From a virus: a stretch of 64,000 nucleotides of DNA. Where the stretch lies: the IMG/VR virus record IMGVR_UViG_3300005439_000019, positions 9,805-73,804 of that record; one strand, given 5' to 3'. A program made the translations under genes and the position numbers. Positions 1-28,395 of this stretch are shown here, piece after piece. Each line of letters begins with the position of its first letter. Position 1 is the stretch's first letter. A model generated the notes under the pieces. It did no database searches and had not been told where the DNA came from. It saw only the letters and a list, made by a program, of their open reading frames with translations.

Positions 1-59
1 CGGCGGCGTCACTCTCCCCGCGAGGGGAGACAAGGGTTCCTCGGGGCTCCCGGGCACAT

Positions 60-144
60 GGGCTTGTGGCGGAATGGCAGACGCGCCAGTTTCAGGAACT
101 GGTGTCCCGCAAGGGACGTGAGGGTTCGAGTCCCTCGGGGCTCA
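60..144 (+). tRNA. tRNA-like, class II Leu(CAG)-like; acceptor stem does not pair (possible pseudo-tRNA)
   Basis: TGGCGGAATGGCAGACGCG D-arm as in tRNA-Leu. Anticodon loop ttCAGga, long variable arm, T-arm GAGGGTTCGAGTCCCTC. The 5' GGGCTTG and 3' GGGGCTC do not form an acceptor helix. Flanked by a CCTCGGGGCTCnCGGG direct repeat. Confidence 0.35.
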
Positions 145-194
145 CGGGGATGCGCAGGTGGCCCGGCTTGCAAGAGCCCGGCGGTCCCTAACCT

Positions 195-281
195 GGAGAG
201 CGAACCGGACAGGCGCGCCGGGCTTCGCCGCTAACGAATGCGCGGGGGTGACCCCGTGGGTTTCGAGTACTCCGCTCTCCG
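195..281 (+). tRNA. tRNA-Ser(GCT)-like, class II, degenerate T-stem
   Basis: Perfect 7-bp acceptor GGAGAGC/GCTCTCC, anticodon loop cCGCTAa, long variable arm, TTCGAGT T-loop with a poor T-stem. Confidence 0.35.
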
Positions 282-400
282 CACCTGGGCCGCAGCACTG
301 GAGTGCAGCCGGATGGACGGGTTCGATTTCCCGTGCGGTCCACCGGGTCCCGGCAGGCCATGCCGGATTTTCCGGACACACCGGAAGCCGGGACCGGCAT

Positions 401-483
401 GGAGAGGTCGCCTAGCGGTCTATGGCGCTTGCCCGGAAAGCAAGTTGGGGTAACCCTCGCGAGTTCGAATCTCGCTCTCTCCG
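401..483 (+). tRNA. tRNA-Ser(GGA)
   Basis: Acceptor GGAGAGG/TCTCTCC (one G-U pair), anticodon stem CTTGC/GCAAG with loop ccGGAaa, long variable arm, T-arm GCGAGTTCGAATCTCGC. Confidence 0.55.
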
Positions 484-505
484 CGCGGATGGTAGATTAG
501 CTGTT

Positions 506-979
506 ATGCCATCCGAAATATCCTGCGCCTGGGCAGCCGGGATTCTCGACGCCGACGGATGCGTAACCATGAGACCGCCATCGGGCGGTCGGTTCCGGTC
601 CCCCTACCTTGTAGTCGACTCCACCGACAGGGAGATCCTGGAAGAGTTGGTTGCCAGCTTCGGCGGTCGCATCCACGAGAAGAGCGTCCGGCATGAGCAC
701 TGGCGTCGCCAGTGGTCCTGGCGGATGTACGGGACCGTTGGCATCCTTGAGTTCCTGCGGCTGGTCATCCCGTACATGCGATGCCCCGCCAAGGTAGCTC
801 GGGCGAGGATGCTAATCGACGAGTACCCGGCGCTGACTCAGCGAAACGGCTGGTACACCCCAGAACAGCGGGCAGCAAAGCTCGACATGGAGGAGCGGTT
901 CATGGCTATCGGTTACGGCCGAGGAGCCAGCCTGCGAGCCCTCCCAAGACCCGGAAGCGTAAGCCGAGCTTCGGCCTAA
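506..979 (+). CDS. LAGLIDADG homing endonuclease (single-motif family) embedded in the tRNA array
   Basis: ORF-track frame 422..979 with an internal ATG at 506 (MPSEIS...) downstream of tRNA-Ser. Motif WAAGILDADGCV matches LAGLIDADG. Local GC is lower than the flanks. The 3' end overlaps the next tRNA by ~25 nt. Confidence 0.55.
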   Translation: MPSEISCAWAAGILDADGCVTMRPPSGGRFRSPYLVVDSTDREILEELVASFGGRIHEKSVRHEHWRRQWSWRMYGTVGILEFLRLVIPYMRCPAKVARARMLIDEYPALTQRNGWYTPEQRAAKLDMEERFMAIGYGRGASLRALPRPGSVSRASA

Positions 980-1042
980 CGGCGGCTGTCTCGAAAACAG
1001 CTAGGGGTAACTCCCGTGTGGGTTCGAGACCCACCGCTTCCT
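953..1042 (+). tRNA. tRNA-Ser(CGA)
   Basis: Perfect acceptor GGAAGCG/CGCTTCC, anticodon stem GCTGT/ACAGC with loop cTCGAaa, long variable arm TAGGGGTAACTCCC, T-arm GTGGGTTCGAGACCCAC. Confidence 0.6.
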
Positions 1043-1046
1043 CTGC

Positions 1047-1238
1047 TTACGGCACGCGCCGCCTGGCGTTCCAGTTTCCGGCTCCCCAGCCGGAGCCGAA
1101 CCCCGCCTCGGCGAGGGCCAGGAAAGTCAGCCCGATGGCGATGATCCCGATGATGACGGTCAGGGAGATGCCGTGGACGCCGAGGATCGCGATGATCGCG
1201 GCGATGAGGAAAGCGAGGACCGCAAGTCCGTAAGTCAT
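1047..1238 (-). CDS. small hydrophobic membrane peptide (63 aa)
   Basis: ORF track. Very high GC3, two predicted TM helices (AVLAFLIAAIIAILG.. / VIIGIIAIGLTFLAL). Sits between tRNA genes. Confidence 0.45.
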   Translation of the reverse strand: MTYGLAVLAFLIAAIIAILGVHGISLTVIIGIIAIGLTFLALAEAGFGSGWGAGNWNARRRVP

Positions 1239-1294
1239 GACAGGGCTCCTTCTGAGGAGCTACCTGCCCCTCAGTTCTTCCGGGGGGCGGTCGA

Positions 1295-1368
1295 GGGCGT
1301 GTAGCTCAGTCGGTTAGAGCACTTCCCTGATAAGGAAGGGGTCAGAGGTTCAATTCCTCTTTCGCCCA
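1295..1368 (+). tRNA. tRNA-Ile(GAT)
   Basis: GTAGCTCAGTCGGTTAGAGC D-arm, anticodon arm CTTCC-ctGATaa-GGAAG, T-arm AGAGGTTCAATTCCTCT. One acceptor mismatch. Confidence 0.65.
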
Positions 1369-1372
1369 CCTC

Positions 1373-1444
1373 GGCGGTGTAGCTCAGTGGCAGAGCACCC
1401 GGCTCATAACCGGGAGGCCGGCGGGTCGTTCCCGCCCTCCGCTA
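1373..1444 (+). tRNA. tRNA-Met(CAT), elongator-like
   Basis: Anticodon arm CCCGG-ctCATaa-CCGGG, D-arm TAGCTCAGTGGCAGAGCA, T-stem GGCGG/CCGCC with a non-canonical T-loop. Confidence 0.5.
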
Positions 1445-1613
1445 CCTGGACCTGCGGGCAGGTTCCGGGCTCGTGCGCCAGCAGCAGCGCGGTGCCGGCC
1501 CAGAGATGGAATGCTGACTCTCCCGGCAGCACCGGGCGAGGGCACAGGAGGCACCGCCAGGGAAACGGCCCCCGGTAGGTGAAGACCTGCCCGATACGCA
1601 CGACCAGATACTA

Positions 1614-1686
1614 GGGCCGTTAACTCAGTGGTAAGAGTGTCACCCTTATAAGGTGAGAGTCGTGCGTTCAATCCGTACACGGCCCA
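1614..1686 (+). tRNA. tRNA-Ile(TAT) (AUA decoder)
   Basis: Perfect acceptor GGGCCGT/ACGGCCC, anticodon loop ctTATaa, T-arm GTGCGTTCAATCCGTAC. Confidence 0.55.
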
Positions 1687-1737
1687 CCAGGACGGAGAGC
1701 ACGTGAACGTCAAACAGGCCCGGCGAATACCTTTCGC

Positions 1738-1809
1738 GGGCTGGTAGCTCAACGGCAGAGCAGCGGTCTTTTAAACCGTGGGTTTAGGGTTCGAATCCCT
1801 GGCAGCCCA
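1738..1809 (+). tRNA. tRNA-Lys(TTT)
   Basis: D-arm TAGCTCAACGGCAGAGCA, anticodon arm GCGGT-ctTTTaa-ACCGT, T-arm TAGGGTTCGAATCCCTG. Confidence 0.65.
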
Positions 1810-1813
1810 CCCT

Positions 1814-1886
1814 GCGCCATTAGCTCAGAGGAAAGAGCGGCCGGCCTCTACCCGGCTCGCCGGGGGTTCGAGTCCTCCATGGCGCA
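1814..1886 (+). tRNA. tRNA-Arg(TCT)
   Basis: Perfect acceptor GCGCCAT/ATGGCGC, anticodon arm GCCGG-ccTCTac-CCGGC, T-arm GGGGGTTCGAGTCCTCC. Confidence 0.6.
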
Positions 1887-1974
1887 CGAGACTGGCCCAC
1901 TTAAGACGGGCTCCGTGGACGCGGGTGCTAGCCCCTCGTCCTCCCCCGGCGGTCGGTCAAGCCGCGCGGAACAC

Positions 1975-2048
1975 GGTCCGTTGGAGGAATCGGCGAACTC
2001 ACCTGGCCCTCAACCAGGAGATTGCGGGTTCAAGCCCCGCACGGATCA
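1975..2048 (+). tRNA. tRNA, anticodon uncertain (possibly Glu-CTC)
   Basis: Acceptor GGTCCGT/ACGGATC, anticodon stem CCTGG/CCAGG, T-arm GCGGGTTCAAGCCCCGC. Confidence 0.4.
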
Positions 2049-2235
2049 CGCAAGCCGGGTACCCAGCCAGCGGGTGACAAGCCCGGCGTGCAAGGACGCT
2101 GGCCTCTGCGAGCGGGAGCGCATGCCTCCCGCGCTTACTCGGGGACCCGTTACGCGGGAGGACGGCCATCCAATACGGCGTCCCCGTAATACGATCCGGA
2201 CCGCAGGTGGCTGAAATCCGCTGGACCGGACATCT

Positions 2236-2307
2236 GCCCCCATCGGCCAATGGCTAGGCCGTCTGCCTTTCAAGCAGGAGAAGACGGGTCGGAACCGTCT
2301 GGGGGAG
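2236..2307 (+). tRNA. tRNA-Glu(TTC)
   Basis: D-stem GGCC/GGCC, anticodon arm TCTGC-ctTTCaa-GCAGG, T-stem GACGG/CCGTC with an unusual T-loop GTCGGAA. Mismatch at pair 1-72. Confidence 0.45.
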
Positions 2308-2338
2308 CGAGGCCGGGACATGTATCCTGGCCACACGA

Positions 2339-2413
2339 CGCGGAGTGGGGGAGTTCGGTGTCCCCGCTGGGCTCATAACCCTGAGATCGCGGGTTCAAAT
2401 CCCGCCTCCGCAA
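2339..2413 (+). tRNA. tRNA-Met(CAT), initiator-like
   Basis: C1xA72 mismatch (CGCGGAG...CTCCGCA-A). Three G-C pairs close the anticodon stem (GGG-ctCATaa-CCC), as in bacterial tRNA-fMet. T-arm GCGGGTTCAAATCCCGC. Confidence 0.5.
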
Positions 2414-2559
2414 CGAGGAAGTGCTGGGCTGGTACTTGGCAACGTGTAGCGCCGCAGGGTCCGCCCTGCGGTGCTGTGACCGTAAGTCCCTTAAACCTCC
2501 CCCCTAGTCACGTCTGGAGCGCCGGCCAGCGCCAGTAAACGGGAAGAGCACTGAATCAT

Positions 2560-2633
2560 TCCGGTGTAGCTCAATTCGGCAGAGCAGGCGGCCGTTAACC
2601 GCAAGGTTCCAGGTTCGATTCCTGGTACCGGAG
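2560..2633 (+). tRNA. tRNA, probably Asn(GTT)
   Basis: Acceptor TCCGGTG/TACCGGA, D-arm TAGCTCAATTCGGCAGAGCA, loop ccGTTaa, T-arm CCAGGTTCGATTCCTGG. Confidence 0.45.
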
Positions 2634-2693
2634 CATCACGGTTGGCGCGGCGGGTAAAATCCCAGCCTTAACCGCGCCGTCATGGTCTTGCAG

Positions 2694-2768
2694 GGCAGCC
2701 AGGAGTGCCCACCTCCCTGTCAAGGAGGAGATCGCCGGTTCGAATCCGGTCAGGACCGCCGGGAAGGT
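2694..2768 (+). tRNA. tRNA-Asp(GTC)
   Basis: Acceptor GGTCTTG/CAGGACC, D-stem GGGC/GCCC, anticodon arm CCTCC-ctGTCaa-GGAGG, T-arm GCCGGTTCGAATCCGGT. Confidence 0.65.
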
Positions 2769-2827
2769 CATCGGCAGAAGTGAAAGAGCGCGCCTTGTCG
2801 AGGGCGGCTCGCCTTCCCTACAGCCCG

Positions 2828-2969
2828 GTTATCCGCCGCCGGTTGTGCAGCTCGGCCTCGCCGAGCCGCTCCAGCCCGTGCACCGCGCCGCTGCGCCGGC
2901 CGCAGGCGAAGCCGACGATGAAGGCGACGACGATGATCACGGCAAGTGCAAGTCCCATGTAACAAACGA
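2828..2969 (-). CDS. possible small membrane peptide (46 aa)
   Basis: Own translation MGLALAVIIVVAFIVGFACGRRSG..; high GC3. Below the ORF-track length cutoff. Lies between tRNAs. Confidence 0.3.
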
Positions 2970-3007
2970 TACGTTTCCCTGGCTTACCTGGCCACCGGGG
3001 ACGAAAC

Positions 3008-3079
3008 GGGCGCTTAGCTCAGCGGAAGAGCGCTTCTCTGACACAGAAGAGGCCGGAGGGTCAGCACCTCCAGTGCCCA
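3008..3079 (+). tRNA. tRNA-Val(GAC)
   Basis: Acceptor GGGCGCT/AGTGCCC, TAGCTCAGCGGAAGAGC D-arm, anticodon arm CTTCT-ctGACac-AGAAG, T-stem GGAGG/CCTCC. Confidence 0.5.
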
Positions 3080-3086
3080 CGGTAAG

Positions 3087-3164
3087 AGGACAGTGGTGAA
3101 ATCGGTAGACATTGGCGAGGAAGGGTGCCACCCCCTCATGCAGGTTCGAGTCCTGCCTGTCCTC
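3087..3164 (+). tRNA. tRNA, class II-like (Leu/Tyr type), anticodon not resolved
   Basis: Perfect acceptor AGGACAG/CTGTCCT, D-region GTGGTGAAATCGGTAGAC (Leu-like), T-arm GCAGGTTCGAGTCCTGC. Confidence 0.4.
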
Positions 3165-3207
3165 TCGCTAAAGGCGGCCCTGGTTGCAACCGGGGCCGCC
3201 TCAACTC

Positions 3208-3280
3208 GCGGACGTAGCTCAACGGATAGAGCGTCAGCCTACGGAGCTGAGCGTTGGGGGTTCGAGTCCCTCCGCCCGCA
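3208..3280 (+). tRNA. tRNA-Arg(ACG)
   Basis: TAGCTCAACGGATAGAGC D-arm, anticodon arm TCAGC-ctACGga-GCTGA, T-arm GGGGGTTCGAGTCCCTC. Confidence 0.6.
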
Positions 3281-3425
3281 CGGTCCCCAGGGACTGGTCC
3301 ATGGCTCCCCTGCACGGCTCCTCATGTGGGAGACATGCCGTGCGCCGCCGCACTTGCCCCACCCTGGGAGCGGCGGAGTTCCTGGGCGACTGCTCAATGA
3401 GTGGTTGAAGCAGTCATCACATCAC

Positions 3426-3497
3426 GGGCGACTAGCTCAAAGGAAGAGCGCTGGTCTCACACACCAGGGGTTGAAGGTTCGAGCCCTTCGCCGCCCA
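3426..3497 (+). tRNA. tRNA-Val(CAC)
   Basis: TAGCTCAAAGGAAGAGC D-arm, anticodon arm CTGGT-ctCACac-ACCAG, T-arm GAAGGTTCGAGCCCTTC. Confidence 0.55.
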
Positions 3498-3499
3498 CC

Positions 3500-3572
3500 G
3501 GGTCGTAACCCAAACGGTTGCGGGGCCTGCCTGTGGAGCAGGTATTAGCGGGTTCGACCCCCGCACGACCCT
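3500..3572 (+). tRNA. tRNA-His(GTG)
   Basis: Perfect acceptor GGGTCGT/ACGACCC, anticodon arm CCTGC-ctGTGga-GCAGG, T-arm GCGGGTTCGACCCCCGC. Confidence 0.55.
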
Positions 3573-3576
3573 CCGT

Positions 3577-3673
3577 GGTGAACATGGTGCAACGGAAGCA
3601 CGCCGGCCTAGCTGGATTTACTGCTCTCGTGGAGCCGGAGACCGCCGGGGTTCGACTCCTGGCGTGTTCATCA
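3577..3673 (+). ncRNA. atypical 97-nt tRNA-like element (8-bp acceptor helix, selC-like T-arm, no recognisable anticodon arm)
   Basis: GGTGAACA...TGTTCATC pair over 8 bp with discriminator A. D-arm GTGC-aacggaa-GCAC. T-region GGGGTTCGACTCCTGG resembles the tRNA-Sec T-arm. The ~45-nt central region gives no 5-bp stem plus 7-nt loop. Confidence 0.3.
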
Positions 3674-3678
3674 CCCCT

Positions 3679-3759
3679 GGCGGAGTGACCCGAGATGGCA
3701 TGGGGGCGGTCTGTAAAACCGCTGCTTCGGCACGGCTGGTTCGAGCCCAGCGTCCGTCA
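3679..3759 (+). tRNA. tRNA-Tyr(GTA)
   Basis: CCCGAG D-loop, anticodon arm GCGGT-ctGTAaa-ACCGC, long variable arm TGCTTCGGCACG, T-arm GCTGGTTCGAGCCCAGC. Confidence 0.55.
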
Positions 3760-3770
3760 CGTAGTTCTTT

Positions 3771-3843
3771 GCGCCCGTAGCTCAGCGGATAGAGCACCGC
3801 CCTCCGGAGGCGGGGGCCGGGGGTTCGAGTCCCTCCGAGCGCA
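3771..3843 (+). tRNA. tRNA-Arg(CCG)
   Basis: TAGCTCAGCGGATAGAGC D-arm, anticodon arm CCGCC-ctCCGga-GGCGG, T-arm GGGGGTTCGAGTCCCTC. Confidence 0.6.
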
Positions 3844-4013
3844 CTGGGAAGTGGTGTAAGAGGGCGATCCGGCCAAGCTCGTGGCCACGGGCGAAGGCAG
3901 GGGAAGCCCCTCGACAGCGCTGCCCGCCGAGACCATGGCAGCCGGCGGGCGGACAGCATCCCCGGGTTCCACCCCGGGGCGGTCCTGGCGAGAACCCAGG
4001 CTTCCCAGCCAAC

Positions 4014-4084
4014 CGCAGGGTGTCCGAGAGGCGAGGTCCTGGTCTGCAAAACCAGGTACGCGGGTTCGAATCCCGTCTCTGCGT
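4014..4084 (+). tRNA. tRNA-Cys(GCA)
   Basis: Acceptor CGCAGGG/CTCTGCG (one G-U pair), anticodon arm CTGGT-ctGCAaa-ACCAG, T-arm GCGGGTTCGAATCCCGT. Confidence 0.55.
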
Positions 4085-4119
4085 CGGGAACCGGGTGCGG
4101 TGCATCCATTCCGGTTCTA

Positions 4120-4192
4120 AGCCCGGTAGCTCAGGGGATAGAGCTATCGCCTCCTAAGCGAGTGGTCGGGGGTTCGAGTCCCTCCCGGGCTG
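4120..4192 (+). tRNA. tRNA-Arg(CCT)
   Basis: Perfect acceptor AGCCCGG/CCGGGCT, TAGCTCAGGGGATAGAGC D-arm, loop ctCCTaa, T-arm GGGGGTTCGAGTCCCTC. Confidence 0.6.
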
Positions 4193-4249
4193 CCCCGCGT
4201 GTTCCGCTGCTGAGTCCCTCCGCCCTGGAAGCAGGGAGGAGGCCAACAC

Positions 4250-4579
4250 ATGCCAACGATCCCGCCGGATACCGTCGCCGCAGGGCAGACCGGGCACCTG
4301 GACGCCCACAACAACATCAGCGACGTGCTGACCGCTTTCCAGGCCCAGCTCAGCGGAATCCCTGCCCTCAAGGCCGGCACCGCCGCGCTGGTCGCCGGGA
4401 CCGTCAGCGTCTCCCTGTCCTCGGTGAGCACCGGCACCATCGTGCTGGTGTCCCGGCTGGTACCCGGCGGCACCGTGGGGCACCTGTCGGTGCCGACCGT
4501 CAGCAACGGCACCGGCTTCACTATCGCCTCCACCTCGGTCTCCGAGACCTCCACCGTCGCCTGGCTCGCTATCGGGTAG
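4250..4579 (+). CDS. hypothetical protein, first gene of the tail-like module
   Basis: ORF track; high GC3; Ser/Thr/Gly/Val-rich beta-type composition. Confidence 0.45.
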   Translation: MPTIPPDTVAAGQTGHLDAHNNISDVLTAFQAQLSGIPALKAGTAALVAGTVSVSLSSVSTGTIVLVSRLVPGGTVGHLSVPTVSNGTGFTIASTSVSETSTVAWLAIG

Positions 4580-4608
4580 CGGCCACGGAAGGGGCAGGAG
4601 GAAACCAC

Positions 4609-5163
4609 ATGTCAGTCATGGAAACGTCCCTGCCGGGACCAGGCGACGCGCTCGCCGTCATGTGCCAGAACCAGATGTCCGGCCCCACCGTGATCGCGGC
4701 CGACGCGAAGCGGAACTACGAGGTCGTCTTCCAGGGCAAGGGCCACCCCGACGGCGAGGACGTCCAGCCGATCCCGGAGGCGCTGCTCAACACGATCCAG
4801 TTCCGCCGGGCGCTCAGCCGGGGCGTCATCGTCGCCATCGAGGGGGCTGACCACCCGATCGTCCAGCAGGCCCTCGCCCGCCAGTCTGACGCCTTCGCCA
4901 AGCGGATGGCCACGCAGCAGATGTCCGACCGCGAGGTGCTCGACTCCCCGGCCGCCGCCGACATCATCGTCGTCAACTGCATCGGCCCCGGCTCCCGGCC
5001 CGGCGCGGTCTGCGGCGAGCAGGTCCCGGTGAAGTCCGGCGACACCGGCAAGCCGCCGCTGTGCGACCGCCACCAGGGCCTGAAGGACCGCTGCCTCAAG
5101 CGCGGAGACGGCCCCTGGGTCCTGGAGGACGACGCCTCGATGTACGAGGGGACGAACTTCTAA
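4609..5163 (+). CDS. hypothetical protein (184 aa)
   Basis: Internal ATG of track ORF 4162..5163 preceded by a GGAGGAAAC Shine-Dalgarno; high GC3 from MSVMETSL. Confidence 0.5.
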   Translation: MSVMETSLPGPGDALAVMCQNQMSGPTVIAADAKRNYEVVFQGKGHPDGEDVQPIPEALLNTIQFRRALSRGVIVAIEGADHPIVQQALARQSDAFAKRMATQQMSDREVLDSPAAADIIVVNCIGPGSRPGAVCGEQVPVKSGDTGKPPLCDRHQGLKDRCLKRGDGPWVLEDDASMYEGTNF

Positions 5164-5588
5164 TGCCGTGGGGGCGTAACCCGGACCACGCCGCGATGAC
5201 CGGGACCTATGACACCAGCGACACCGCCGGCCCGGACGCGCCCCACACCGAGCTGCGCGGGGTGACGGCCGCGTTCGACCTGGCCCGCGCCAGCGACCTG
5301 GCGTGGGCGCTGCGGGGGATGGACCCCTCCGACGAGGCCGTCTCCTCGAACATCGTCCAGACCAGCCCGGGGCTGACCGTCAACCGGGGCGACCCGGACG
5401 GCGACAGGGCGCGGGTAACCGCCGCCGCCGCCCGTGCCCGCCAGGCCCTGGAAGAGGCAGGGATGGAGCTTGACCCGGTGTCCGGGGCGATCCGCTGGCG
5501 CGACCACACCGCGCCGTGGCAGAACCACGCCGCCGCGATCGGCCCCATGACCGTCGTCGATGACAACACGGACCGGAGCGCCGGATGA
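5163..5588 (+). CDS. hypothetical protein (141 aa)
   Basis: ATG overlaps the upstream TAA (TAATG); frame of track ORF 5061..5588. Confidence 0.45.
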   Translation: MPWGRNPDHAAMTGTYDTSDTAGPDAPHTELRGVTAAFDLARASDLAWALRGMDPSDEAVSSNIVQTSPGLTVNRGDPDGDRARVTAAAARARQALEEAGMELDPVSGAIRWRDHTAPWQNHAAAIGPMTVVDDNTDRSAG

Positions 5589-7888
5589 CAACCCCCGCCG
5601 ACTTCTACGGCGTCCCCCTGATCAGCGTCACGACCCAGGTGGACACGATCACCATCAGCCACACCGTCCCGGCTGCCCTCTCCAAGAAGGGCATCGTCTC
5701 CTACCCGTCGCTGGAGACCGCCGGGGCGACGCCGACCTCCGACGTGATCACCGTCTTCGACGTCACCACGGCCACCGCCCTGGTCCTGAACACCGACTAC
5801 ACGCTGACCGCCTCCGGCAGCTCGCCGGAGACCCAGACCTACTCGGTCACCCGGGTCAACAGCTCCTCGGCCTCCGCCGACGGCAACACCTGCCGCGTCA
5901 CCTACCGCTGGGGCACCGTCCCGGACAGCGCCCGTGACTTCGGCGACTTCCAGGGCGAGGCGGGCGCAGCCCCGGCGGGCACCGCCTTCCAGGCGTCCAA
6001 CCAGCCGACCAGCGGGTCGACGGTCGCTGGCATCGGCGAGCAGGCGGCCGGAGGGTCCCTCACCGACCCGGCCAACACCGTCAAGGGCGGCCCGGAGACC
6101 GGCTCCCCCGGCTCGGAGTACGGGGTCACCCCGACCCACCCGAGCACCTTCGGGTACAACGCCCTGGGCTCCCCCGATACCGAGGCGGTCTACGGCGGCG
6201 CGCTGCCGGAGAACTTCGTCCCGACCGACACCAGCTTCACCACGACGGTCGACACCACCGTGGCGGGCGGCTCCAACCTGGTGCCCGCGATGTTCCCGAG
6301 CCCGCCCGGGTACCGTGCCCCGTCGGCCGGGGTGGCGGGCGGGACGAAGGACACGACCCTGACGGACATCCTGGGCAACCAGGTGAACGCCACCGCGTCG
6401 CAGCCTCCCTCCGGGTACGCCGCGACGCTGGTCGACACCAGCTACATCGGGTCCCCGGCCGCTCCCACCGCGCTGGTGTCGCAGACCGACGCCTTCGCCG
6501 CCGACCAGGCAGGCTCCCCTGACTACCTGTCGCAGTCCGGGATCATCCCCTCGTCGATCGTCGTCACCAACACCACCACCTCGACGCTGATGGTGCTGAC
6601 GACCGACTACACGGTGACCACCGCAGGGAACGGCCCGACCCTCAACGCCTACGTCACGCCGGTCGCGGGCACCAACTTCGCCAACGGGAACAGCGTCTCG
6701 GTCACCTACAACTGGGGCGACGCGACCTACTGGGACTCCAACCCGCCAACCTCGGTCCCCGGCGCGCCGACGATGAACTCGGTCACCGCCGTCAACCGGG
6801 GCGTCAACGTCAACTGGAGCGCCCCGGCGACCGACGTCTACGTCCAGTACTACCTGCTCCAGTCCTCTGACCTGGGCACCATGTACGTCCCCTACACCGG
6901 GCAGCCGGTCAACTACGGGCAGACCTCCCCCTCGGGCGGCGCGAGCATCGGCCAGCCGACCTACCAGTCGGACGTCCTCAACCTGGTGACGGCGGCGCTG
7001 GCCGCCCCGGCGACCCCGACCTCCGCTACCGCCACCTCAGGCGGCACCGTGCTGGCCGGCACCTACACGATGGTCACCACCTACACGAACGCCAACGGGG
7101 AGACCCTGGCCTCGGCGACCCACACCCAGGTGACCACCGGGTCGACGTCCACCCTGACGGTCAACTCCCCCGGCGCGCTGTCCGGGGCCACCCACTGGTA
7201 CGCCTACGTCTCCCAGGTCGGCGGGACCACCCTGACCAGGCAGCAGGCAGCCGGGTCCCCCACCCTGATCGGCACCAACCTGACGCTGACCGCCCCGCCG
7301 ACCAGCACCGGGGCGAACCCGCCGACCCTGAACACGACGATCCCGACCACCTCGAAGACGGGCGTCCTCACCCCGCCCGCCCAGGTCATCGTCAAGGACC
7401 TCACCACCGCCGGGGCCGAGGGCGACCCGATGCAGCCCGACGGCTTCGTGCTGGAGTACGGCTATGACTACACCATCACGGTGGTCGGGGCCGGCCCGTG
7501 GACGCAGTACCAGGTCGCCCTGGTCGCCAGCTCGGTGAACGCGGCGGCGGGCGACCAGATCGAGATCGACTACTGGTACGGGGCGGACCCCAGCTCGGTC
7601 AGCGCGGTGTTCACCCAGGGCCTGGTGCAGAACACCAACGTGATCTACCGGCCGGACGGCACCACCCCCTACAACCAGGGGTACAGGTTCCAGGTGGCGG
7701 CCGGCAACCAGCTCGGGGTCGGCCCGTGGTCCGCCTGGTCCTCCTACGCGGTCCCGCTGAACTACAACGAGCCGCAGGCCAACGCCAGCATCACCGTCGG
7801 CACCGGCTCCCTCGACCCGGCCAACACGATCAACCCGATCTACAAGCCGGACGGCACCGTCAAGGCGGGCACAGGGCTCGGAGGCTAG
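5585..7888 (+). CDS. minor tail / tail-fibre-like protein with fibronectin type III domains (767 aa)
   Basis: ATGA overlap with the upstream gene. Thr/Ser/Gly-rich. FN3-like segments (VNWSAPATDVYVQYYLL..., YRFQVAAGNQLGVGPWSAWSSYAVPLN). Confidence 0.55.
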   Translation: MTTPADFYGVPLISVTTQVDTITISHTVPAALSKKGIVSYPSLETAGATPTSDVITVFDVTTATALVLNTDYTLTASGSSPETQTYSVTRVNSSSASADGNTCRVTYRWGTVPDSARDFGDFQGEAGAAPAGTAFQASNQPTSGSTVAGIGEQAAGGSLTDPANTVKGGPETGSPGSEYGVTPTHPSTFGYNALGSPDTEAVYGGALPENFVPTDTSFTTTVDTTVAGGSNLVPAMFPSPPGYRAPSAGVAGGTKDTTLTDILGNQVNATASQPPSGYAATLVDTSYIGSPAAPTALVSQTDAFAADQAGSPDYLSQSGIIPSSIVVTNTTTSTLMVLTTDYTVTTAGNGPTLNAYVTPVAGTNFANGNSVSVTYNWGDATYWDSNPPTSVPGAPTMNSVTAVNRGVNVNWSAPATDVYVQYYLLQSSDLGTMYVPYTGQPVNYGQTSPSGGASIGQPTYQSDVLNLVTAALAAPATPTSATATSGGTVLAGTYTMVTTYTNANGETLASATHTQVTTGSTSTLTVNSPGALSGATHWYAYVSQVGGTTLTRQQAAGSPTLIGTNLTLTAPPTSTGANPPTLNTTIPTTSKTGVLTPPAQVIVKDLTTAGAEGDPMQPDGFVLEYGYDYTITVVGAGPWTQYQVALVASSVNAAAGDQIEIDYWYGADPSSVSAVFTQGLVQNTNVIYRPDGTTPYNQGYRFQVAAGNQLGVGPWSAWSSYAVPLNYNEPQANASITVGTGSLDPANTINPIYKPDGTVKAGTGLGG

Positions 7889-9681: not shown

Positions 9682-9903
9682 ATGACCGCGACGGCCACCT
9701 GCCAGTGCGGCAAGGTCCCGGACCGGCCCTGCTCCGCCGCGATCACCCAGGAGGACCTGCTGTGCGACCAGTGCAGGGCATCCCTCCTGGAAGGCATGAC
9801 TCACATCGTCTTCTCCTGGCTGACCTTGAGCGGGCCGGTCCCCCAGCACTACGCCGTCCCGGTGAAAGGCGTAGACGGGTTCTTCTCCATGGAAGCGTCA
9901 TGA
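9682..9903 (+). CDS. small Cys-rich protein (CxC...CxxC)
   Basis: ORF track; CQCGKVPDRPC...CDQC. Confidence 0.4.
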   Translation: MTATATCQCGKVPDRPCSAAITQEDLLCDQCRASLLEGMTHIVFSWLTLSGPVPQHYAVPVKGVDGFFSMEAS

Positions 9904-23522: not shown

Positions 23523-26500
23523 CTACAGGAAGAGGTCCGAGCCGTCCAGGTCGTCCATGACGGCCGGGGCGTACTGGGCGGAGGCTCCTACCGGGGCGAG
23601 CGACGGGACCGACCGGGCGGCGGTGCGCTGCTGCGGGGGGCGCGCGGCCTGGCGCTGCGGGGCGACGGCCGACAGGACCCCGATCTCGTGCTCGATCAGC
23701 GCCGTGGACAGAGCCGCGTCGCGCTCGATGTGCTCGGCGACCGCCAGCTCCTCTCCGTGGGCGATCCCGGCGGTGACCCGCAGGCGCGCCAGGCGGATGG
23801 AGGCGAAGGTGCGCCGCGAGGCCTCGGCCTCGCTCAGCGAGGCGTTGACGCTGCCGCCCGCGCCCTGCTGCTGGCCCGGCTGCCGGGCGTCCAGCAGCCA
23901 CGGGAACGCCGCGCCGTTGTCGCCCTGGCCGCCGATGCCGGGGCCGTGCGCCTTCAGCGGGTCGGGGTCGATGCGGACGTCGGTCTCGATGCGCCGCTGC
24001 TCCAGGGGGACGCCGCCGTCCTGGCTGGGGTTGGTCCCCTGCACGGGCTGGGTGACGTCGACCAGGTTGGTCGCCGGGGGCGTCTGCACCTCGACGCCCG
24101 GGGTGATCGGGGTGGTGGTCTGCATGGCCGGGACCCGCGAGTTGGCACCGGGCGTGGTGCCGGGACGGCCCGCGTTGTCCATCGCCTCGGGGGCGAGCGC
24201 CTGCTCGGTGGTCTCCGACGGCGGACCCTGCGGCGGGTCGGGGACCGGGCTGGCCGGGTTGAGGAGGTCCGCCTGCCTGCGCATCTCCCGGCGGCCGATC
24301 TCGGCCAGCTCCCTGCCTACCCCCGCAGCGGAGGCGAGGAAGCTGAGCTGGGCCTCCAGGACCGCGTTACGGGCGCTCAGCTCGGCAATCCGGCGCGTCT
24401 GGGCCTGCGCGAGCGCGGCGGCCGTCTTACGGTCTGCTGGCATGTCCTTGTCCTCGTCTTCCTCGTCTTCCTCGTCCTCGGGCTGCTCGCCCTCGGCAGA
24501 CGGGTCTTCTGACTCTTCCGGGGGCACCGCGCCCTCGCCGCCTTCCCCGTCCTCGTCGGCGGGGTGCAGCGCGGCCATCCCGCACGCCGGGCAGGGGACC
24601 CCCGGCTGGGCGGCGGCGTCCGCCTCGAAGGTGGTGCCGCACGCTGGGCAGATCAGCTCCTCGGCGTAGGCCTGGTCCCCGCCTTCCTCGTCTTCCGGCG
24701 GGACGGCACCCTCCGGGGCTTCCTCGTCCTCTTCGGCTGCTGCCTCTTCTTCTTCCGCCACGGCATCCGGCGGGAGCCCGTCGGTGTCCCCGGCGGGCAC
24801 GGGGCCGCCCTCCCCCTGGACCGTCGGCACCCCGTCAGGGGCGATCTGGTCGGGGTGCACGAGCTGCTCGTCGGCGTCATCTCCGCTGCCGATCTCCGCC
24901 TGCGCCGGGGCACCGGGCTGCCCGGCACCCGGCTGGTCCGGTGGGATCTCGACGTCCCCCGAGCTGTCGAGCTGGTCACGTACCTCGCTGGCCTTGCTGG
25001 TGTCCGGGTCCCTGAAAACCGACGGAGGGACGACGAAGCCGCAGACCGGGCACCGCGATCCCGACCAGACGTTGTGCTCTCCGCAGACCGGGCACTCGTC
25101 CATCCGCAGCGCGTCCACCTGCGGCGGGACCCTGGTCTCCCCGTACGCCTGCCTGGTCAGCGAGTTGTAGGACTGGCGCAGCGCGTAGTCCATCGGCCGG
25201 GATGTCCTCCCGAGGATGGTGTCCTGCTGGTGGGCCTGGTTCCAGTGCCCCGGCATGGCGGTGTCTTCCTTCCAGCCGATCTTCCCGAGGCAGTGCTGGC
25301 ACAGCATCGGCATCATCCGGCTGGGCGGGGACCCGACCTCGTTGAAGTCAGCCCCGCAGCCGGCGCAGTGGGTGCCGCCCTCCGCCAGCGCCCCGTGGTA
25401 GTGCATGTTCTCCTCGGGGATGTCCGGGTGGTGCTGCCTGCGCCGCTCCTGCCAGCGGGTCCGGGAGTTCTCCCCGAGCTGGTTACGGCCCTTCCCGCCG
25501 CCGCCCTTGCTGCCGGATGCGTCCTCGGCGGCGTTCTTGCGGATCTGCACCAGCCAGGTGGCCGCCTGCACCTGGTGCGGGGCGATCTTCCTGCCGTAGT
25601 GCGCCGACAGCTCCCTGGACGCCTGCCGGTAGGCGTGCGCGACGTGCTCGTAGTGCTGGTGCTGGCCGATCGGCATGCCGTCCTTCTCGGTGTCGGTCAG
25701 CCGGTGCCCGACGGCGACGGACATGGCGTGCCGGTCGACGACCACCTTCTCCGTGCCGTTCCTCACGTCCTCGTCGGTGTCGCCGCCGTGCTCTATCAGG
25801 TGGGCGAACGCCGCCGTCTTGGGGGCCTTCAGCACCTTGGAGTGGTGCTCCCCGCCGAGGATGCGGACGGCGGCCTTCTGGTGCACGCCCATCGCCCCGG
25901 TGCCTGGGCCGGGCGGGTCGCCGTGGAAGGCGCGGCTGGCGTTGAACAGGTTGACCGGCCACAGGGTGCGGACCGAGTAGGCGGACAGCACGCCGGCCCC
26001 CATGGCGGCGTCCCCCTTGCCCATCACCTTGGCGACGTGGTGGGCGTCGGAGTACCACCTGTCGCCCAGCGCCCGCTCGTCGTCGCTGGCCTCGTGGTAG
26101 GCGGCGACGATGTGGTGGCTGGAGACCGGGTGGCGCTTGAACCACTCGTGCTCACCGCCCTCGGCCTTCTTCGCCGCCGACGTCCGCATCTCGGCGATGT
26201 CGGAGTCCGGGATGTCGTCGACCGTGGGGTAGGAGTCGCTCCTCGACCTGTGGGTCCGGGAGTGGACGTAGAACCCGTTGCGGTCCTTCTTCAGGCCAAC
26301 CCCGTCGAACCGGGCGTCGCGGCCGTAACCGCGCACCGGCCTGCCCTGAGGCCGCTTCCGGGCGCTCTGCGACTGCATCGGGGCGTCCTCCGGGTTCCAC
26401 TGGCGGGCGGGCGCGAAGGGCTCGGTGCCCTCGTCCCGGTACCCTCTCTCGACTTCCAGGGGGTGCTGCTCGGTGCCGCCGGCGCTGTTGTAGCGGACGG

Positions 26501-27707
26501 AGCCCGGCTTGCCCTCGGCGGTGCCTGTCCCGTAGTGCCCGATCGCGCAGTCGTTGCAGAGGAACGGCATGCCCTGGTTCTGCCAGTCGCCGGCTGCGCT
26601 GCTCTCGTACGGGCTGGTGAACGGGTGGCCGCAGTTGACGCAGCGGCCCGCGTCGGACGGCCACGGGAGCGCGGCGGACCTGCGCGACGCGGTGAACGGG
26701 TCCGGCGGCATCTGCCCCTCGTCCCCCCGGGGGCGGCGCGGCAGCTCGTGCCCTGACAGCTCCTCGAACCGGGCGTGCATGTACTCCCGCATCGCCTGCT
26801 GCGCCTGGTCGCGCCGTGCCTCGATGCCGGGGATCGACGCGAAGACGCCCTCGGGGTCGGCGGGGGTGGCGGGGTGGTCGCGCTTCATCCCGTCGTGGTG
26901 GTGCCAGCCGCCGTTGGCCTCCGGCTTGCGCATGTTGACCCGGACCTGCTCGCCGCAGACCAGGCAGTGCGTGCCCCCGTAGGTCTGGTCCCGGTTCACG
27001 GCCGTCCTCGCGGCGGCCTTCGCCATGCCCCGGGCGTCGGGCTTGCCGAGCAGGTACGCGGTCGGGTCGGCCGGGTCCTCGACCAGGAGCGAGTTCTCGA
27101 AGAACGACAGGCCGGCGCAGACCTCGTGGATCAGCTTCTCCTCGACCTTGCCGGTCACCTTGTTGCGCTGGCGGATCTTCTTGCCCTTCATAGCGGGCAG
27201 GTGCTTGCAGTACTCGGCGGGGCTGGTCGCCTTGTTGCCGCAGGCGGAGCAGCGCGACCACTCGACGTCCACGCCCATCGAGGTGCGGTTCACCCGCCCG
27301 GCGAGGATGGCCTTGGCCAGGCGCGGGAACCGCACGGCGTCGACCTCCATGAGGCCCTCGACCCAGGTGTCCGGCGTCCCGTCGGGGTTGCGGTCGCGGT
27401 GCAGGGCGATGGCGACGATGACGCCCCGTGCCCGGCGGTGGTTGGCGTTGTGGTGGTTGACGAAGACCGGCTTGCCGAGGAAGCTCTTGTACCCCTTCTC
27501 GATCTCATCGGCCGGGAACGTGTCGTGGTTGTCGTTGGTCCGGCTGGAGATCATCCGGGAGCGGACGTACAGGTAGCCCTGGCGCGGCTGGTAGTCGAAC
27601 GCGACGCGGTGGGCGGTCTTGAAGATCCGGCGCTCAGCGCCCGCGAGGCTGCCCGGGGCAGCGTGACGCCACGCCTCCAGTACCTCCAGCGTCGCGTACT
27701 TCCGCAC
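23523..27707 (-). CDS. giant prohead protease (HK97/S78-like N-terminus) fused to a zinc-ribbon-rich, acidic, scaffold-like protein (~1394 aa)
   Basis: Track ORF 23523..27893; probable GTG start at 27707 after GGGAGGA. KPVFVNHHNANHRRARG and NRTSMGVDVEW resemble the PLLWNHD and Ser motifs of HK97-family prohead proteases. Six or more CxxC pairs. Glu/Asp blocks. C-terminal coiled coil. Confidence 0.5.
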   Translation of the reverse strand: MRKYATLEVLEAWRHAAPGSLAGAERRIFKTAHRVAFDYQPRQGYLYVRSRMISSRTNDNHDTFPADEIEKGYKSFLGKPVFVNHHNANHRRARGVIVAIALHRDRNPDGTPDTWVEGLMEVDAVRFPRLAKAILAGRVNRTSMGVDVEWSRCSACGNKATSPAEYCKHLPAMKGKKIRQRNKVTGKVEEKLIHEVCAGLSFFENSLLVEDPADPTAYLLGKPDARGMAKAAARTAVNRDQTYGGTHCLVCGEQVRVNMRKPEANGGWHHHDGMKRDHPATPADPEGVFASIPGIEARRDQAQQAMREYMHARFEELSGHELPRRPRGDEGQMPPDPFTASRRSAALPWPSDAGRCVNCGHPFTSPYESSAAGDWQNQGMPFLCNDCAIGHYGTGTAEGKPGSVRYNSAGGTEQHPLEVERGYRDEGTEPFAPARQWNPEDAPMQSQSARKRPQGRPVRGYGRDARFDGVGLKKDRNGFYVHSRTHRSRSDSYPTVDDIPDSDIAEMRTSAAKKAEGGEHEWFKRHPVSSHHIVAAYHEASDDERALGDRWYSDAHHVAKVMGKGDAAMGAGVLSAYSVRTLWPVNLFNASRAFHGDPPGPGTGAMGVHQKAAVRILGGEHHSKVLKAPKTAAFAHLIEHGGDTDEDVRNGTEKVVVDRHAMSVAVGHRLTDTEKDGMPIGQHQHYEHVAHAYRQASRELSAHYGRKIAPHQVQAATWLVQIRKNAAEDASGSKGGGGKGRNQLGENSRTRWQERRRQHHPDIPEENMHYHGALAEGGTHCAGCGADFNEVGSPPSRMMPMLCQHCLGKIGWKEDTAMPGHWNQAHQQDTILGRTSRPMDYALRQSYNSLTRQAYGETRVPPQVDALRMDECPVCGEHNVWSGSRCPVCGFVVPPSVFRDPDTSKASEVRDQLDSSGDVEIPPDQPGAGQPGAPAQAEIGSGDDADEQLVHPDQIAPDGVPTVQGEGGPVPAGDTDGLPPDAVAEEEEAAAEEDEEAPEGAVPPEDEEGGDQAYAEELICPACGTTFEADAAAQPGVPCPACGMAALHPADEDGEGGEGAVPPEESEDPSAEGEQPEDEEDEEDEDKDMPADRKTAAALAQAQTRRIAELSARNAVLEAQLSFLASAAGVGRELAEIGRREMRRQADLLNPASPVPDPPQGPPSETTEQALAPEAMDNAGRPGTTPGANSRVPAMQTTTPITPGVEVQTPPATNLVDVTQPVQGTNPSQDGGVPLEQRRIETDVRIDPDPLKAHGPGIGGQGDNGAAFPWLLDARQPGQQQGAGGSVNASLSEAEASRRTFASIRLARLRVTAGIAHGEELAVAEHIERDAALSTALIEHEIGVLSAVAPQRQAARPPQQRTAARSVPSLAPVGASAQYAPAVMDDLDGSDLFL

Positions 27708-27762
27708 AGGGTCCTCCCGGTCTGCTCTCCTCTTCCGGGGCAGCCCGGGAACCCGTTGCTCA

Positions 27763-27783
27763 ATACAGCTTTTCTTGATATTC
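27763..27783 (+). promoter_or_regulatory. conserved promoter/operator motif (copy 4) in a divergent intergenic region
   Basis: ATACAGCTTTTCTTGATATTC between the minus gene start (27707) and the plus gene start (27835). Confidence 0.45.
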
Positions 27784-27834
27784 TCGTGCCAGCGAACGCA
27801 GAGCAGGGACGAAGCAGGGACACTGGAGGAGAAG

Positions 27835-28395
27835 ATGACCGAGATGACACTGGCCCAGCAGGTCGCCCAGGAGGCAGCCGGACGGGTCCACAAGCTCGCC
27901 CCCTACCTGACCGACGGCCGGCACCCGCTCACCCCCGGGCAGGCCGAGGGGATCATGCGGCACCTGGGCACGTGCCCGGTACGGCCAGCTCCGGAGGAGA
28001 ACGTGGCGCGTCACGACGCTCACAGGGCGGAAACGGATCACGAGCGTCACGCGGCAGGCCCCGTCATCGCCGACATCACGGCCGGGTTCTACGCCACGCC
28101 GAGCAGGACCGGCACCAACGACCTGGACTTCTGGAAGGTCACCGAGGGCCGCAGGCCCGGCATCCGGTTCGTCAAGCGGGTGGTCGGCGGCGGCGACGAC
28201 AAGTACCCCAGGCTGATCGAGATCTCCAACCAGGAGCAGCTCCAGGCGCTGCGGGCTATCCTGCGGGCAGGGATATCAGAGGCTGCCGACGTCTACGCCG
28301 TCAACCAGGAGCGCTGCAAGAAGTGCGGCAGCCAGCTTACTGACGAGGCGTCGCGGGCGGCCAGGATGGGGCCTGTATGCCGAGGAGAACGGTGA
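27835..28395 (+). CDS. hypothetical protein (186 aa)
   Basis: Frame of track ORF 27775..28395; ATG after GGAGGAG; C-terminal CKKCGSQ...C. Confidence 0.45.
   Translation: MTEMTLAQQVAQEAAGRVHKLAPYLTDGRHPLTPGQAEGIMRHLGTCPVRPAPEENVARHDAHRAETDHERHAAGPVIADITAGFYATPSRTGTNDLDFWKVTEGRRPGIRFVKRVVGGGDDKYPRLIEISNQEQLQALRAILRAGISEAADVYAVNQERCKKCGSQLTDEASRAARMGPVCRGER

Follow-up and report, generated by a model that had tools for sequence, protein, structure and literature searches.

The large tRNA gene array of an uncultivated GC-rich actinophage: codon matching, structural constraint and resident RNAs

Why some phages carry large arrays of transfer RNA (tRNA) genes is debated, with codon compensation set against escape from host tRNA depletion as the purpose. 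The question is raised again by a 64,000-nt stretch of IMG/VR virus record IMGVR_UViG_3300005439_000019 (positions 9,805 to 73,804 of the record; hereafter the window), which opens with closely packed tRNA genes. We identify window positions 1-4200 as the 3′ part of a single-strand tRNA array whose genes, judged by their sequences, are real, structurally constrained, conserved in order and matched to the codons of the phage. The reading that we favour, with moderate confidence, is that the array is a near-complete decoding set that would let the phage translate independently of the tRNAs of its host. Rare A/U-ending codons can largely be dismissed as the reason for the array, save for a possible contribution from the codon AGG. 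Large phage tRNA arrays are already well known, and the unusual details of this one leave the category of the feature unchanged.

ARAGORN at default settings called 21 tRNA genes between positions 60 and 4194, every one on the plus strand; the other 60 kb of the window gave no call, and no transfer-messenger RNA (tmRNA) was found in the window. The Rfam tRNA covariance model (RF00005, gathering score 29 bits) accepted 19 genes in a scan of the whole window, and tRNA-Tyr(GTA) became the 20th when its stretch was scanned alone. Four tRNA-shaped genes fell below the Rfam threshold: Ser-GCT and Ser-CGA, both of class II and matching only the Rfam Sec model, a non-canonical RNA at 3086-3166 (the odd tRNA), and an RNA at 3580-3670 called X here. 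With Ser-GCT, Tyr-GTA and X added to the ARAGORN calls, there are 24 tRNA-shaped genes in 4.1 kb (Table 1), and the region has what marks a phage tRNA array, namely at least 20 densely spaced genes on one strand that serve most amino acids. Relaxed ARAGORN runs also produced noise (antisense and "tmRNAp" calls), which was disregarded. GC content is about 0.70 in the window and 0.65 in the array. An initial annotation, made from the letters of the window, had proposed an array of about 22-24 tRNA genes at 1-4200 in a 70% GC genome, and had suggested ARAGORN and covariance-model scans as checks. Gene number and base composition agree with it; Ile(TAT), Lys(TTT), Arg(TCT), Arg(CCT) and Glu(TTC), which it had listed, are all found by ARAGORN, and the Rfam model accepts most members rather than rejecting them. 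Its coordinates hold for the window but enclose only part of the array, which runs on upstream of position 1.

The upstream part is seen in L078, a contig from the same metagenome (labels L060 to L109 denote the loci and contigs retrieved for comparison), which is 100% identical to window positions 1-2040 and carries 12 further tRNAs upstream, from Phe to Gly-CCC. This match shows directly that the window cuts the array short, and the phage therefore has at least 36 tRNA-shaped genes; the relatives suggest that the full array holds about 42 tRNA genes. The source is an uncultivated soil actinophage of about 160 kb and about 70% GC, whose distant kin include the Cluster C mycobacteriophages and large phages of Gordonia and Rhodococcus. 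Among the proteins encoded in the window are a portal, a major head protein, a giant protein with a protease region and a cement protein; portal, major head protein and protease match PHROG families, and the portal shares only 35-37% identity with its counterparts in Myrna, Phabba, Pupper and Finch. A megablast search of window positions 1-6000 against cultured phages gave no match, and a distant blastn search gave scattered single-tRNA matches only. Relatives in IMG/VR number 57; several of their contigs are 160-166 kb long, and portal identities go down to 63-75%.

Related arrays were retrieved by anchoring on genes just 3′ of the array, where a 184-amino-acid protein served better than a 767-amino-acid downstream protein that gave only 2 loci; four additional arrays were pulled from metagenomes with a conserved spacer motif (1946-1973). 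Gene order is kept in at least 10 related arrays. L060, L062, L066 and L067 hold 37-40 tRNAs each in the order of the window, and complete arrays of relatives serve all 20 amino acids plus the initiator. The shared order of the 3′ half is Leu-CAG, three or four Ser, Ile, Met, (Ile-TAT), Lys, Arg-TCT, two Glu, fMet, Asn, Asp, Val, (odd tRNA), Arg-ACG, Val/His, Tyr, Arg-CCG, Cys and Arg-CCT, and the 5′ halves of the relatives contribute Trp, Ala, Pro, Phe, Gly, Lys-CTT, Leu, Gln and Thr. Orthologues of Ser-GCT, at the equal array position, are default ARAGORN calls in L062, L063, L064, L066 and L067, and those of Tyr-GTA are called Tyr in L060, L061, L064 and L066. For Ser-CGA the Rfam bounds yield a perfect 7-bp acceptor stem (GGAAGCG/CGCTTCC) and the ARAGORN bounds are wrong; this gene shares 78% identity with a tRNA-Ser annotated in Streptomyces phage Daubenski (L074). 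The initiator has the C1xA72 mismatch and the three G-C pairs closing the anticodon stem that distinguish bacterial initiators, and its anticodon loop is conserved across all arrays.

The set is closely matched to what the phage translates. Under standard wobble rules, 52% of phage codons are decoded by the window tRNAs, 78% with the L078 part added, and 98.5% once Trp, Ala and Pro are included as in the relatives. The only codons left unread by the full set are CTA, GCA, GTA, TCA and TTA, which are rare and A-ending, and complete arrays omit the anticodons UAA, UAG, UAC, UGC and UGA. Most members serve the codons that are used most (CUG, GAG, GAC, AAC, CAC, GUC, CGG and CGC). The 22 window tRNAs with 7-nt anticodon loops begin their anticodons with G in nine cases, C in eight, U in four and A in one. 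GC content at third codon positions (GC3) is 0.92-0.93 over 13,000-15,000 codons of GC3-supported open reading frames (ORFs), a set that was itself partly selected by GC3. Anticodon makeup, codon usage and coverage thus agree that the set mirrors the common G/C-ending codons and skips several A-ending readers.

In the mechanism that we propose, a set for 20 amino acids and the initiator, with anticodons mirroring the G/C-ending codons of the phage, would be transcribed as long precursors that are presumably cut by the host RNases P and Z. A scan for sigma-70 promoters gave no site, and a terminator scan gave a count not above chance. Independence from the host would matter in the late burst of structural-gene expression, and also when host tRNAs are depleted, either through shut-off or by tRNA-cleaving defence or toxin systems. 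A mobile LAGLIDADG-like endonuclease riding on a tRNA-Ser, two antisense membrane ORFs and three structured RNAs that would not decode sit in the array as passengers. Translation autonomy, the second explanation offered by the initial annotation, fits a near-complete set with an initiator, a conserved order and almost every phage codon decodable.

Table 1. Coordinates in the window of the tRNA genes and of other features in and beside the array (MFE, minimum free energy)
Feature	Position	Strand	Detection and remarks
tRNA-Leu(CAG), class II	60..145	+	ARAGORN; Rfam 40.5 bits; position constant in all related arrays
tRNA-Ser(GCT), class II, C33, 4-bp anticodon stem	195..282	+	Relaxed ARAGORN only; Rfam Sec model 27.1 bits
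Mini tRNA-like fold	286..342	+	Between Ser-GCT and Ser-GGA; MFE z = -2.6 (spacer 283-400)
tRNA-Ser(GGA), C33, loop CC-GGA-AA	401..484	+	ARAGORN; Rfam 49.4 bits
Probable LAGLIDADG-type homing endonuclease, 157 aa	506..979	+	phrog_5046, E = 5e-22
tRNA-Ser(CGA), class II, enlarged D-arm	953..1041	+	Rfam Sec model 33.4 bits; ARAGORN shifted, 959-1043
Small membrane-protein ORF, 63 aa	1047..1238	-	GC3 0.88; GAAGGAG ribosome-binding site
tRNA-Ile(GAT)	1295..1370	+	ARAGORN; Rfam 69.5 bits
tRNA-Met(CAT), elongator type (or Ile2), T-loop GTCGTTC	1373..1446	+	ARAGORN; Rfam 59.5 bits
tRNA-Ile(TAT)	1614..1689	+	ARAGORN; Rfam 63.9 bits; also in L062, L101, L104
tRNA-Lys(TTT)	1738..1811	+	ARAGORN; Rfam 60.1 bits
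tRNA-Arg(TCT), C33, loop CC-TCT-AC	1814..1887	+	ARAGORN; Rfam 56.9 bits
Conserved spacer motif GCGGTCGGTCAAGCCGCGCGGA	1946..1973	+	Immediately 5′ of tRNA-Glu(CTC)
tRNA-Glu(CTC), C33	1975..2049	+	ARAGORN; Rfam 57.4 bits
tRNA-Glu(TTC), T-loop GTCGGAA, G1xA72	2236..2308	+	ARAGORN; Rfam 41.6 bits
Initiator tRNA-fMet(CAT)	2339..2414	+	ARAGORN structure; Rfam 56.4 bits; kept in all arrays
tRNA-Asn(GTT), C33, loop CC-GTT-AA	2560..2634	+	ARAGORN; Rfam 56.0 bits
tRNA-Asp(GTC)	2684..2760	+	ARAGORN; Rfam 53.2 bits
Single-pass membrane ORF, 46 aa	2818..2958	-	Antisense to array; read from sequence
tRNA-Val(GAC), T-loop GTCAGCA	3008..3080	+	ARAGORN; Rfam 54.9 bits
Non-canonical tRNA-shaped RNA (odd tRNA)	3086..3166	+	ARAGORN '???(gaag)'; Rfam 24.9 bits, sub-threshold
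13-bp GC-rich hairpin, no U-tract	3172..3200	+	MFE z = -5.5; after odd tRNA
tRNA-Arg(ACG)	3208..3281	+	ARAGORN; Rfam 60.5 bits
tRNA-Val(CAC)	3426..3499	+	ARAGORN; Rfam 59.5 bits
tRNA-His(GTG)	3500..3574	+	ARAGORN; Rfam 48.1 bits
X, tRNA-shaped RNA	3580..3670	+	Rfam tRNA 25.5 bits; 24-nt insert in anticodon loop
tRNA-Tyr(GTA), class II, G7xG66	3679..3759	+	Rfam 30.0 bits in focused scan; relaxed ARAGORN
tRNA-Arg(CCG)	3771..3844	+	ARAGORN; Rfam 62.9 bits
Z, unclassified structured RNA, ~165 nt	3845..4007	+	Directly between Arg-CCG and Cys-GCA
tRNA-Cys(GCA)	4014..4085	+	ARAGORN; Rfam 47.4 bits
tRNA-Arg(CCT), final array gene	4120..4194	+	ARAGORN; Rfam 59.3 bits
Tail-fibre-like gene with K1-lyase_C domain	4250-4579		3′ of array end

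The array genes keep their folds. Across seven arrays, 95% of acceptor, 97% of anticodon and 99% of T-stem pairs are formed, and orthologues differ at 27-44% of stem positions; double substitutions in stems keep pairing in 2,486 cases and break it in 155, counts that are pairwise, not independent, and drawn from ARAGORN calls that favour folded sequences. A frequent departure from the canonical tRNA lies beside the anticodon. U33 is present in nearly all tRNAs (PMC2275089) and in 17 of the 22 window tRNAs with 7-nt loops; the other five (Ser-GCT, Ser-GGA, Arg-TCT, Glu-CTC and Asn-GTT) have C33. C33 occurs in 38 of 229 tRNAs of the clade (about 17%) and in 1 of 75 from the controls (0/19, 0/28 and 1/28; p = 2e-4), the tRNAs that carry it differ by phage, and arrays recovered later from metagenomes have 3-5 such tRNAs each. 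Positions 32, 33, 37 and 38 vary among orthologues; variation at position 33 amounts to 0.25, equal to that at stem positions, and T54, C56 and A58 are almost fixed. In the array of L067 (1-9548), about half of the T-loops read TCCGAAT, with C55 in place of the near-universal U55.

Several points weigh against an independent decoding set. The 5′ end with Trp, Ala and Pro is taken from relatives and lies outside the sequence at hand, and tests of codon matching are weak because a near-complete set covers almost everything. C33 and C55 are T-to-C transitions in a 70%-GC genome and could have arisen by mutational drift rather than adaptation; since all these changes are of that kind, drift under relaxed constraint is the null explanation for them. 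Genes for RNA repair, CCA addition or tRNA modification are absent from the 64-kb window, and of about 35 window proteins scanned against Pfam and PHROG none was assigned to translation, RNA repair or tRNA modification.

The strongest competitor, a possibility that we consider real but clearly less probable, is that the array merely boosts supply or broadens host range by providing more tRNA per codon demand, with no tie to host tRNA loss or defence. Such a function would also call for anticodons that mirror usage and for high codon coverage, and would need no RNA-repair or anti-defence genes nearby, where none is seen. The codon usage of the phage is almost identical to that of a host proxy (chromosomal loci from metagenome-assembled genomes (MAGs) of Trebonia and Streptosporangiaceae, Streptomycetales/Streptosporangiales, an inferred proxy that may not be the true host), and this similarity cuts both ways: it is in keeping with plain supply, yet if usages are equal the host pool should already suffice. 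Simple supply also leaves the variation at position 33 and at the bases flanking the anticodon unexplained. Sequence data alone do not separate host tRNA depletion or defence from simple supply.

The anticodon-loop variation invites a bolder proposal. Evasion of host anticodon nucleases has been put forward for the tRNAs of Cluster C1 mycobacteriophages, on the basis of the known specificities of mycobacterial VapC and MazF and of a comparison with host tRNAs (van den Berg et al. 2023, PMC10264068). The phage type and the variable anticodon-loop bases outside the anticodon are alike here. Our comparison is among orthologues, and the substitution seen most often, U33 to C, does not figure in that paper. 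It is possible that C33 has been selected for escape from anticodon-loop nucleases. More speculatively, and on balance unlikely, the array as a whole may counter host immunity that targets tRNAs, and do so at several levels: the C33 and C55 tRNAs would be poor substrates for anticodon-loop or T-loop nucleases yet still decode, the odd tRNA and X would act as decoys or inhibitors, and the structured RNA Z (3845-4007) would be a small RNA released by tRNA processing. If this were true, functional C33 elongator tRNAs would be in routine natural use.

That the non-canonical members (the odd tRNA, X, the C33 tRNAs and those with odd T-loops) are pseudogenes decaying under relaxed selection we consider improbable. 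The irregularities are real, as the initial annotation had noted: the window has odd T-loops, acceptor mismatches and one 8-nt anticodon loop. That loop, AGGAAGGG, is G-rich and belongs to the odd tRNA, which has a Leu-like D-arm, a short variable region, discriminator C, and G at position 33 in place of U33. Its orthologues in L062, L063, L066 and L064 stand after Val-GAC, as in the window, and the first three have the loop CGCGG(G/T)A with G33. Decay would account for the 8-nt loop of the window as against the 7-nt CGCGGGA of L062 and L063, for the L064 orthologue (loop AGGGGGCA), which lacks the D-loop GG and the T-loop consensus, for the absence of both the odd tRNA and X from some relatives (L060, L067 and L099), and for C33 and C55 as transitions that GC pressure favours. 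It does not sit well with six stem pairs of the odd tRNA that show compensatory double changes (for example TGGCG/TGCCA vs TGACG/TGTCA and GCAGG/CCTGC vs GCGGG/CCCGC), counted by hand because MAFFT misaligned the 3′ anticodon stem of loops of unequal length, or with retention of the G33 loop in three divergent phages. A pattern scan of IMG/VR for its D-arm returned the known relatives, two chance matches and one unrelated phage.

X shows all four tRNA arms, a 26-nt anticodon "loop" and a terminal stem that can be extended to 12 bp (3575-3674). Its sole orthologue, at 8888-8978 of L066, shares 79% identity with it; the acceptor and inner stems differ by compensatory changes, three stem pairs being altered on both sides; a pattern scan matched only the contig of L066. 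The C33 of Glu-CTC is common to L063, L099, L101, L104 and a compact array in L078, the Glu-TTC T-loop recurs in L062 and in that same compact array, and the remainder of each affected tRNA is fully paired, all of which speaks against decay. Most array members are therefore not pseudogenes, and the suggestion of the initial annotation that some may be is mostly wrong, given the stem pairing and the excess of pair-keeping changes. Its other suggestion, of regulatory RNAs, is partly borne out by the odd tRNA and X, which keep their stems by compensatory change but have no canonical anticodon loop.

Codon compensation, in which the phage would bring readers of A/U-ending codons that a high-GC host seldom uses but phage genes need, was the leading idea of the initial annotation and is, in our view, very improbable. 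Ile-TAT, Lys-TTT, Arg-TCT and Glu-TTC are present, as it would predict, and the endonuclease ORF at 506-979 uses some rare codons. Yet the corresponding codons are rare in the phage itself (per 1000 codons, ATA 0.8-0.9, AAA 0.5, AGA 0.5 and GAA 5.1-5.5), and each is rarer there than in the inferred proxy. The sole enriched codon is AGG, read by Arg-CCT and Arg-TCT, at 11.9 per 1000 in the phage vs 6.4 in the proxy (1.8-fold); AGG apart, the phage-host comparison does not show the array to serve codons that the phage uses more than its host, insofar as the proxy represents that host. Nor is the set enriched for readers of A/U-ending codons, as had been claimed, with U at the first anticodon position (U34) in only 18% of the window tRNAs (21% including the upstream part from L078) and with Arg-CCT reading a G-ending codon. 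U34 reaches 53% in Daubenski and 46% in Arthrobacter phage Racecar (Fisher p = 0.018), actinophages of 48-51% GC in which compensation is plausible. Both resemble our phage in having a multi-tRNA cluster with an endonuclease between tRNA-Ser genes, and both carry Ile-TAT, so this gene is not special here; they differ in that about half of their anticodons begin with U, and our phage is as GC-rich as its presumed host. High GC3, the omission of A-ending readers from complete arrays and the preference of most members for the commonest codons complete the case. With a phage that equals its likely host in GC content and a set that mirrors common codons, rare-codon compensation can largely be excluded, and this adds weight to independence from the host tRNA pool.

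Least likely of all is a selfish array unit that moves among chromosomes, plasmids and phages with little benefit to the phage, for although mycobacterial chromosomes, plasmids and phages share such units (PMC5966550), a homing endonuclease lies inside this array, and L078 has a divergent compact array with shared order and quirks beside Trebonia/Streptosporangiaceae-like chromosomal genes, L078 is at least partly chimeric, 0 of 12 related bacterial loci have an array beside that gene, and order and structure kept down to 63-75% portal identity argue for long-term selection in the phage lineage. Past window position 2040, L078 switches to this second array of 15 tRNAs with 1-5 nt spacers (4753-7878), which begins with Lys-TTT and ends with Arg-CCT; beyond it lie EamA and DUF2071 genes 82-91% identical to genes of Trebonia and Streptosporangiaceae MAGs; the chromosomal homology begins about 95 nt past the last tRNA. 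The first junction destroys a tRNA, and the 12 related bacterial loci have no tRNA array beside the EamA gene, so we treat L078 as chimeric at least in part, and for the same reasons we rejected its compact array as the marker of an array in the host chromosome. L078 gives a weak hint of a Streptosporangiales host. A short ORF rich in rare codons (MRSKQQAGNRIRLPAPQALR) with a strong ribosome-binding site lies 5′ of the compact array.

Among the elements that accompany the decoding set, the ORF at 506-979 is probably a mobile LAGLIDADG-like homing endonuclease. It has the motif AAGILDADGC, which aligns to I-CvuI, and some of its homologues were annotated LAGLIDADG by their depositors; the match to Pfam LAGLIDADG_3 is below threshold (E = 0.011, 16.4 bits vs a cut-off of 22.5), the label of phrog_5046 is 'HNH endonuclease', and a single-sequence AlphaFold model (mean confidence score pLDDT 45) is unusable. 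Its distribution is sporadic among close relatives, as expected of a mobile element: it is present in the window and L078 only, among 10 related arrays, and absent from the other relatives in the clade. Its last 27 nt overlap tRNA-Ser(CGA). The protein is 45% identical to gp22 of Gordonia phage WilliamBoone (L109), which lies in a Ser/endonuclease/Ser module with a 54-nt overlap, and this module recurs at 506-1041 of the window, 2867-3507 of L109 and 11204-12092 of L074; in two of the unrelated actinophages the endonuclease ORF enters the 5′ part of the second tRNA-Ser. Homology between the window tRNA-Ser(CGA) and the Ser-TGA of relatives (L060) is confined to positions 972-1041, and for this reason a 5′ tRNA segment may travel with the cassette. 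Homing endonucleases occur in other phage tRNA clusters, such as SegB of T4 and the tRNA-region endonucleases of T5. As in those cases, the gene here is free-standing amid tRNA genes and sporadic among relatives; unlike them, it is LAGLIDADG-like rather than GIY-YIG, the end of its coding sequence reaches into the 5′ part of a tRNA-Ser, and its module recurs in WilliamBoone.

Two ORFs antisense to the array, at 1047-1238 and 2818-2958, have no family match. The first is a called gene in L078, and its DNA is conserved in L060, L063 and L064; ORFs similar to the second lie antisense in the Val-GAC/Arg-ACG spacers of L067 (8742-8916), L099 and L108. Small single-pass antisense membrane ORFs of 44-63 amino acids thus recur in the arrays of several relatives.

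RNA Z is a new, unclassified structured RNA. RNAalifold predicts 47 pairs from six orthologues, 18 of them with compensatory double changes, and a covariance model detects a single copy in each array, also in that of L063 (139.9 bits), which was outside the training set of the model. Orthologues lie at L060 7776-7946, L062 8488-8655, L063 5200-5369, L064 4143-4312 and L065 249-416, and the position of Z inside the array varies by phage. Three single-stranded blocks are conserved (TGGTGTAAG, ACCATGGATAAC and GGACAGCA). Z matches no Rfam family and nothing among cultured phages. A peptide gene was rejected as its explanation, the ATG-containing block being read in different frames across phages.

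The array spacers seem to host diverse structured RNAs. The hairpin that follows the odd tRNA is present in L062, L063 and L066 with differing stem sequences, and in L060 the site of the odd tRNA is taken by another sequence, of 128 nt (7575-7702), closed by an 11-bp terminal stem, GCAGCATGGGC/GCCCATGCTGC. The mini tRNA-like fold at 286-342 has an acceptor-like stem, two small hairpins and a T-arm (CGGG-TTCGATT-CCCG), without an anticodon arm; it is conserved only in part, in L063, and is, on weak support, probably a tRNA remnant. The motif at 1946-1973 is 91-96% identical in L066, L062, L067, L064 and L063, and this motif (GCGGTCGGTYAAGCCGYGCGGA, 22-28 nt) surpasses even the tRNAs in conservation. 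Its exact sequence has one copy in the window and is also found in tRNA-free metagenome stretches (L097, L098 and L106); a general promoter was rejected for it, the motif being unrepeated in the window.

A Ro60/Y-RNA system behind the tRNA-like RNAs was rejected. Neither the window nor the retrieved parts of the genomes of relatives gave a Ro (TROVE) homologue, and Rfam Y RNA and YrlA models gave sub-threshold matches only, at about 20 bits and all overlapping true tRNAs. Pseudo-tRNAs and tRNA mimics are known from bacteria, among them tRNA-Other of B. cereus and the tRNA-like module found in YrlA and other bacterial Y RNAs. The odd tRNA and X resemble these in being tRNA-shaped without a standard decoding loop and differ from YrlA in having normal rather than permuted tRNA topology. 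In L073 (IMGVR_UViG_3300020156_000022; 5-1363 and 2543-2770), an unrelated phage of 44% GC, a Ro60-like gene stands beside two tRNA-like genes with 8-nt anticodon loops, which are candidate Y-RNA-like tRNA mimics.

The closest known counterparts are the Cluster C mycobacteriophages (Bxz1/Myrna type), with about 30-35 tRNAs and, in C1, a tmRNA. They are likewise large lytic-type actinophages with homologous portal and head proteins and a dense one-strand array of a few kb by tail genes that serves nearly all amino acids; Myrna, with 33 tRNAs in 4.7 kb adjoining tail genes, also has an endonuclease within its array. The phage described here differs in its low portal identity to them, in having no tmRNA in the window, and in a larger array of about 40 genes. 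C33 is found in 17% of tRNAs here vs 1 of 28 in Myrna, and Z and X are without counterpart in cultured phages. Well-formed tRNAs with frequent C33, two tRNA mimics and an RNA lodged between tRNAs make the array useful material for tRNA biology. Elsewhere in the window, the minus-strand gene at 23523-27893 encodes a 1,456-amino-acid protein that joins a head-maturation-protease-like region (phrog_18299, phrog_2774) to DUF7178, an unusually large fusion inside the head module.

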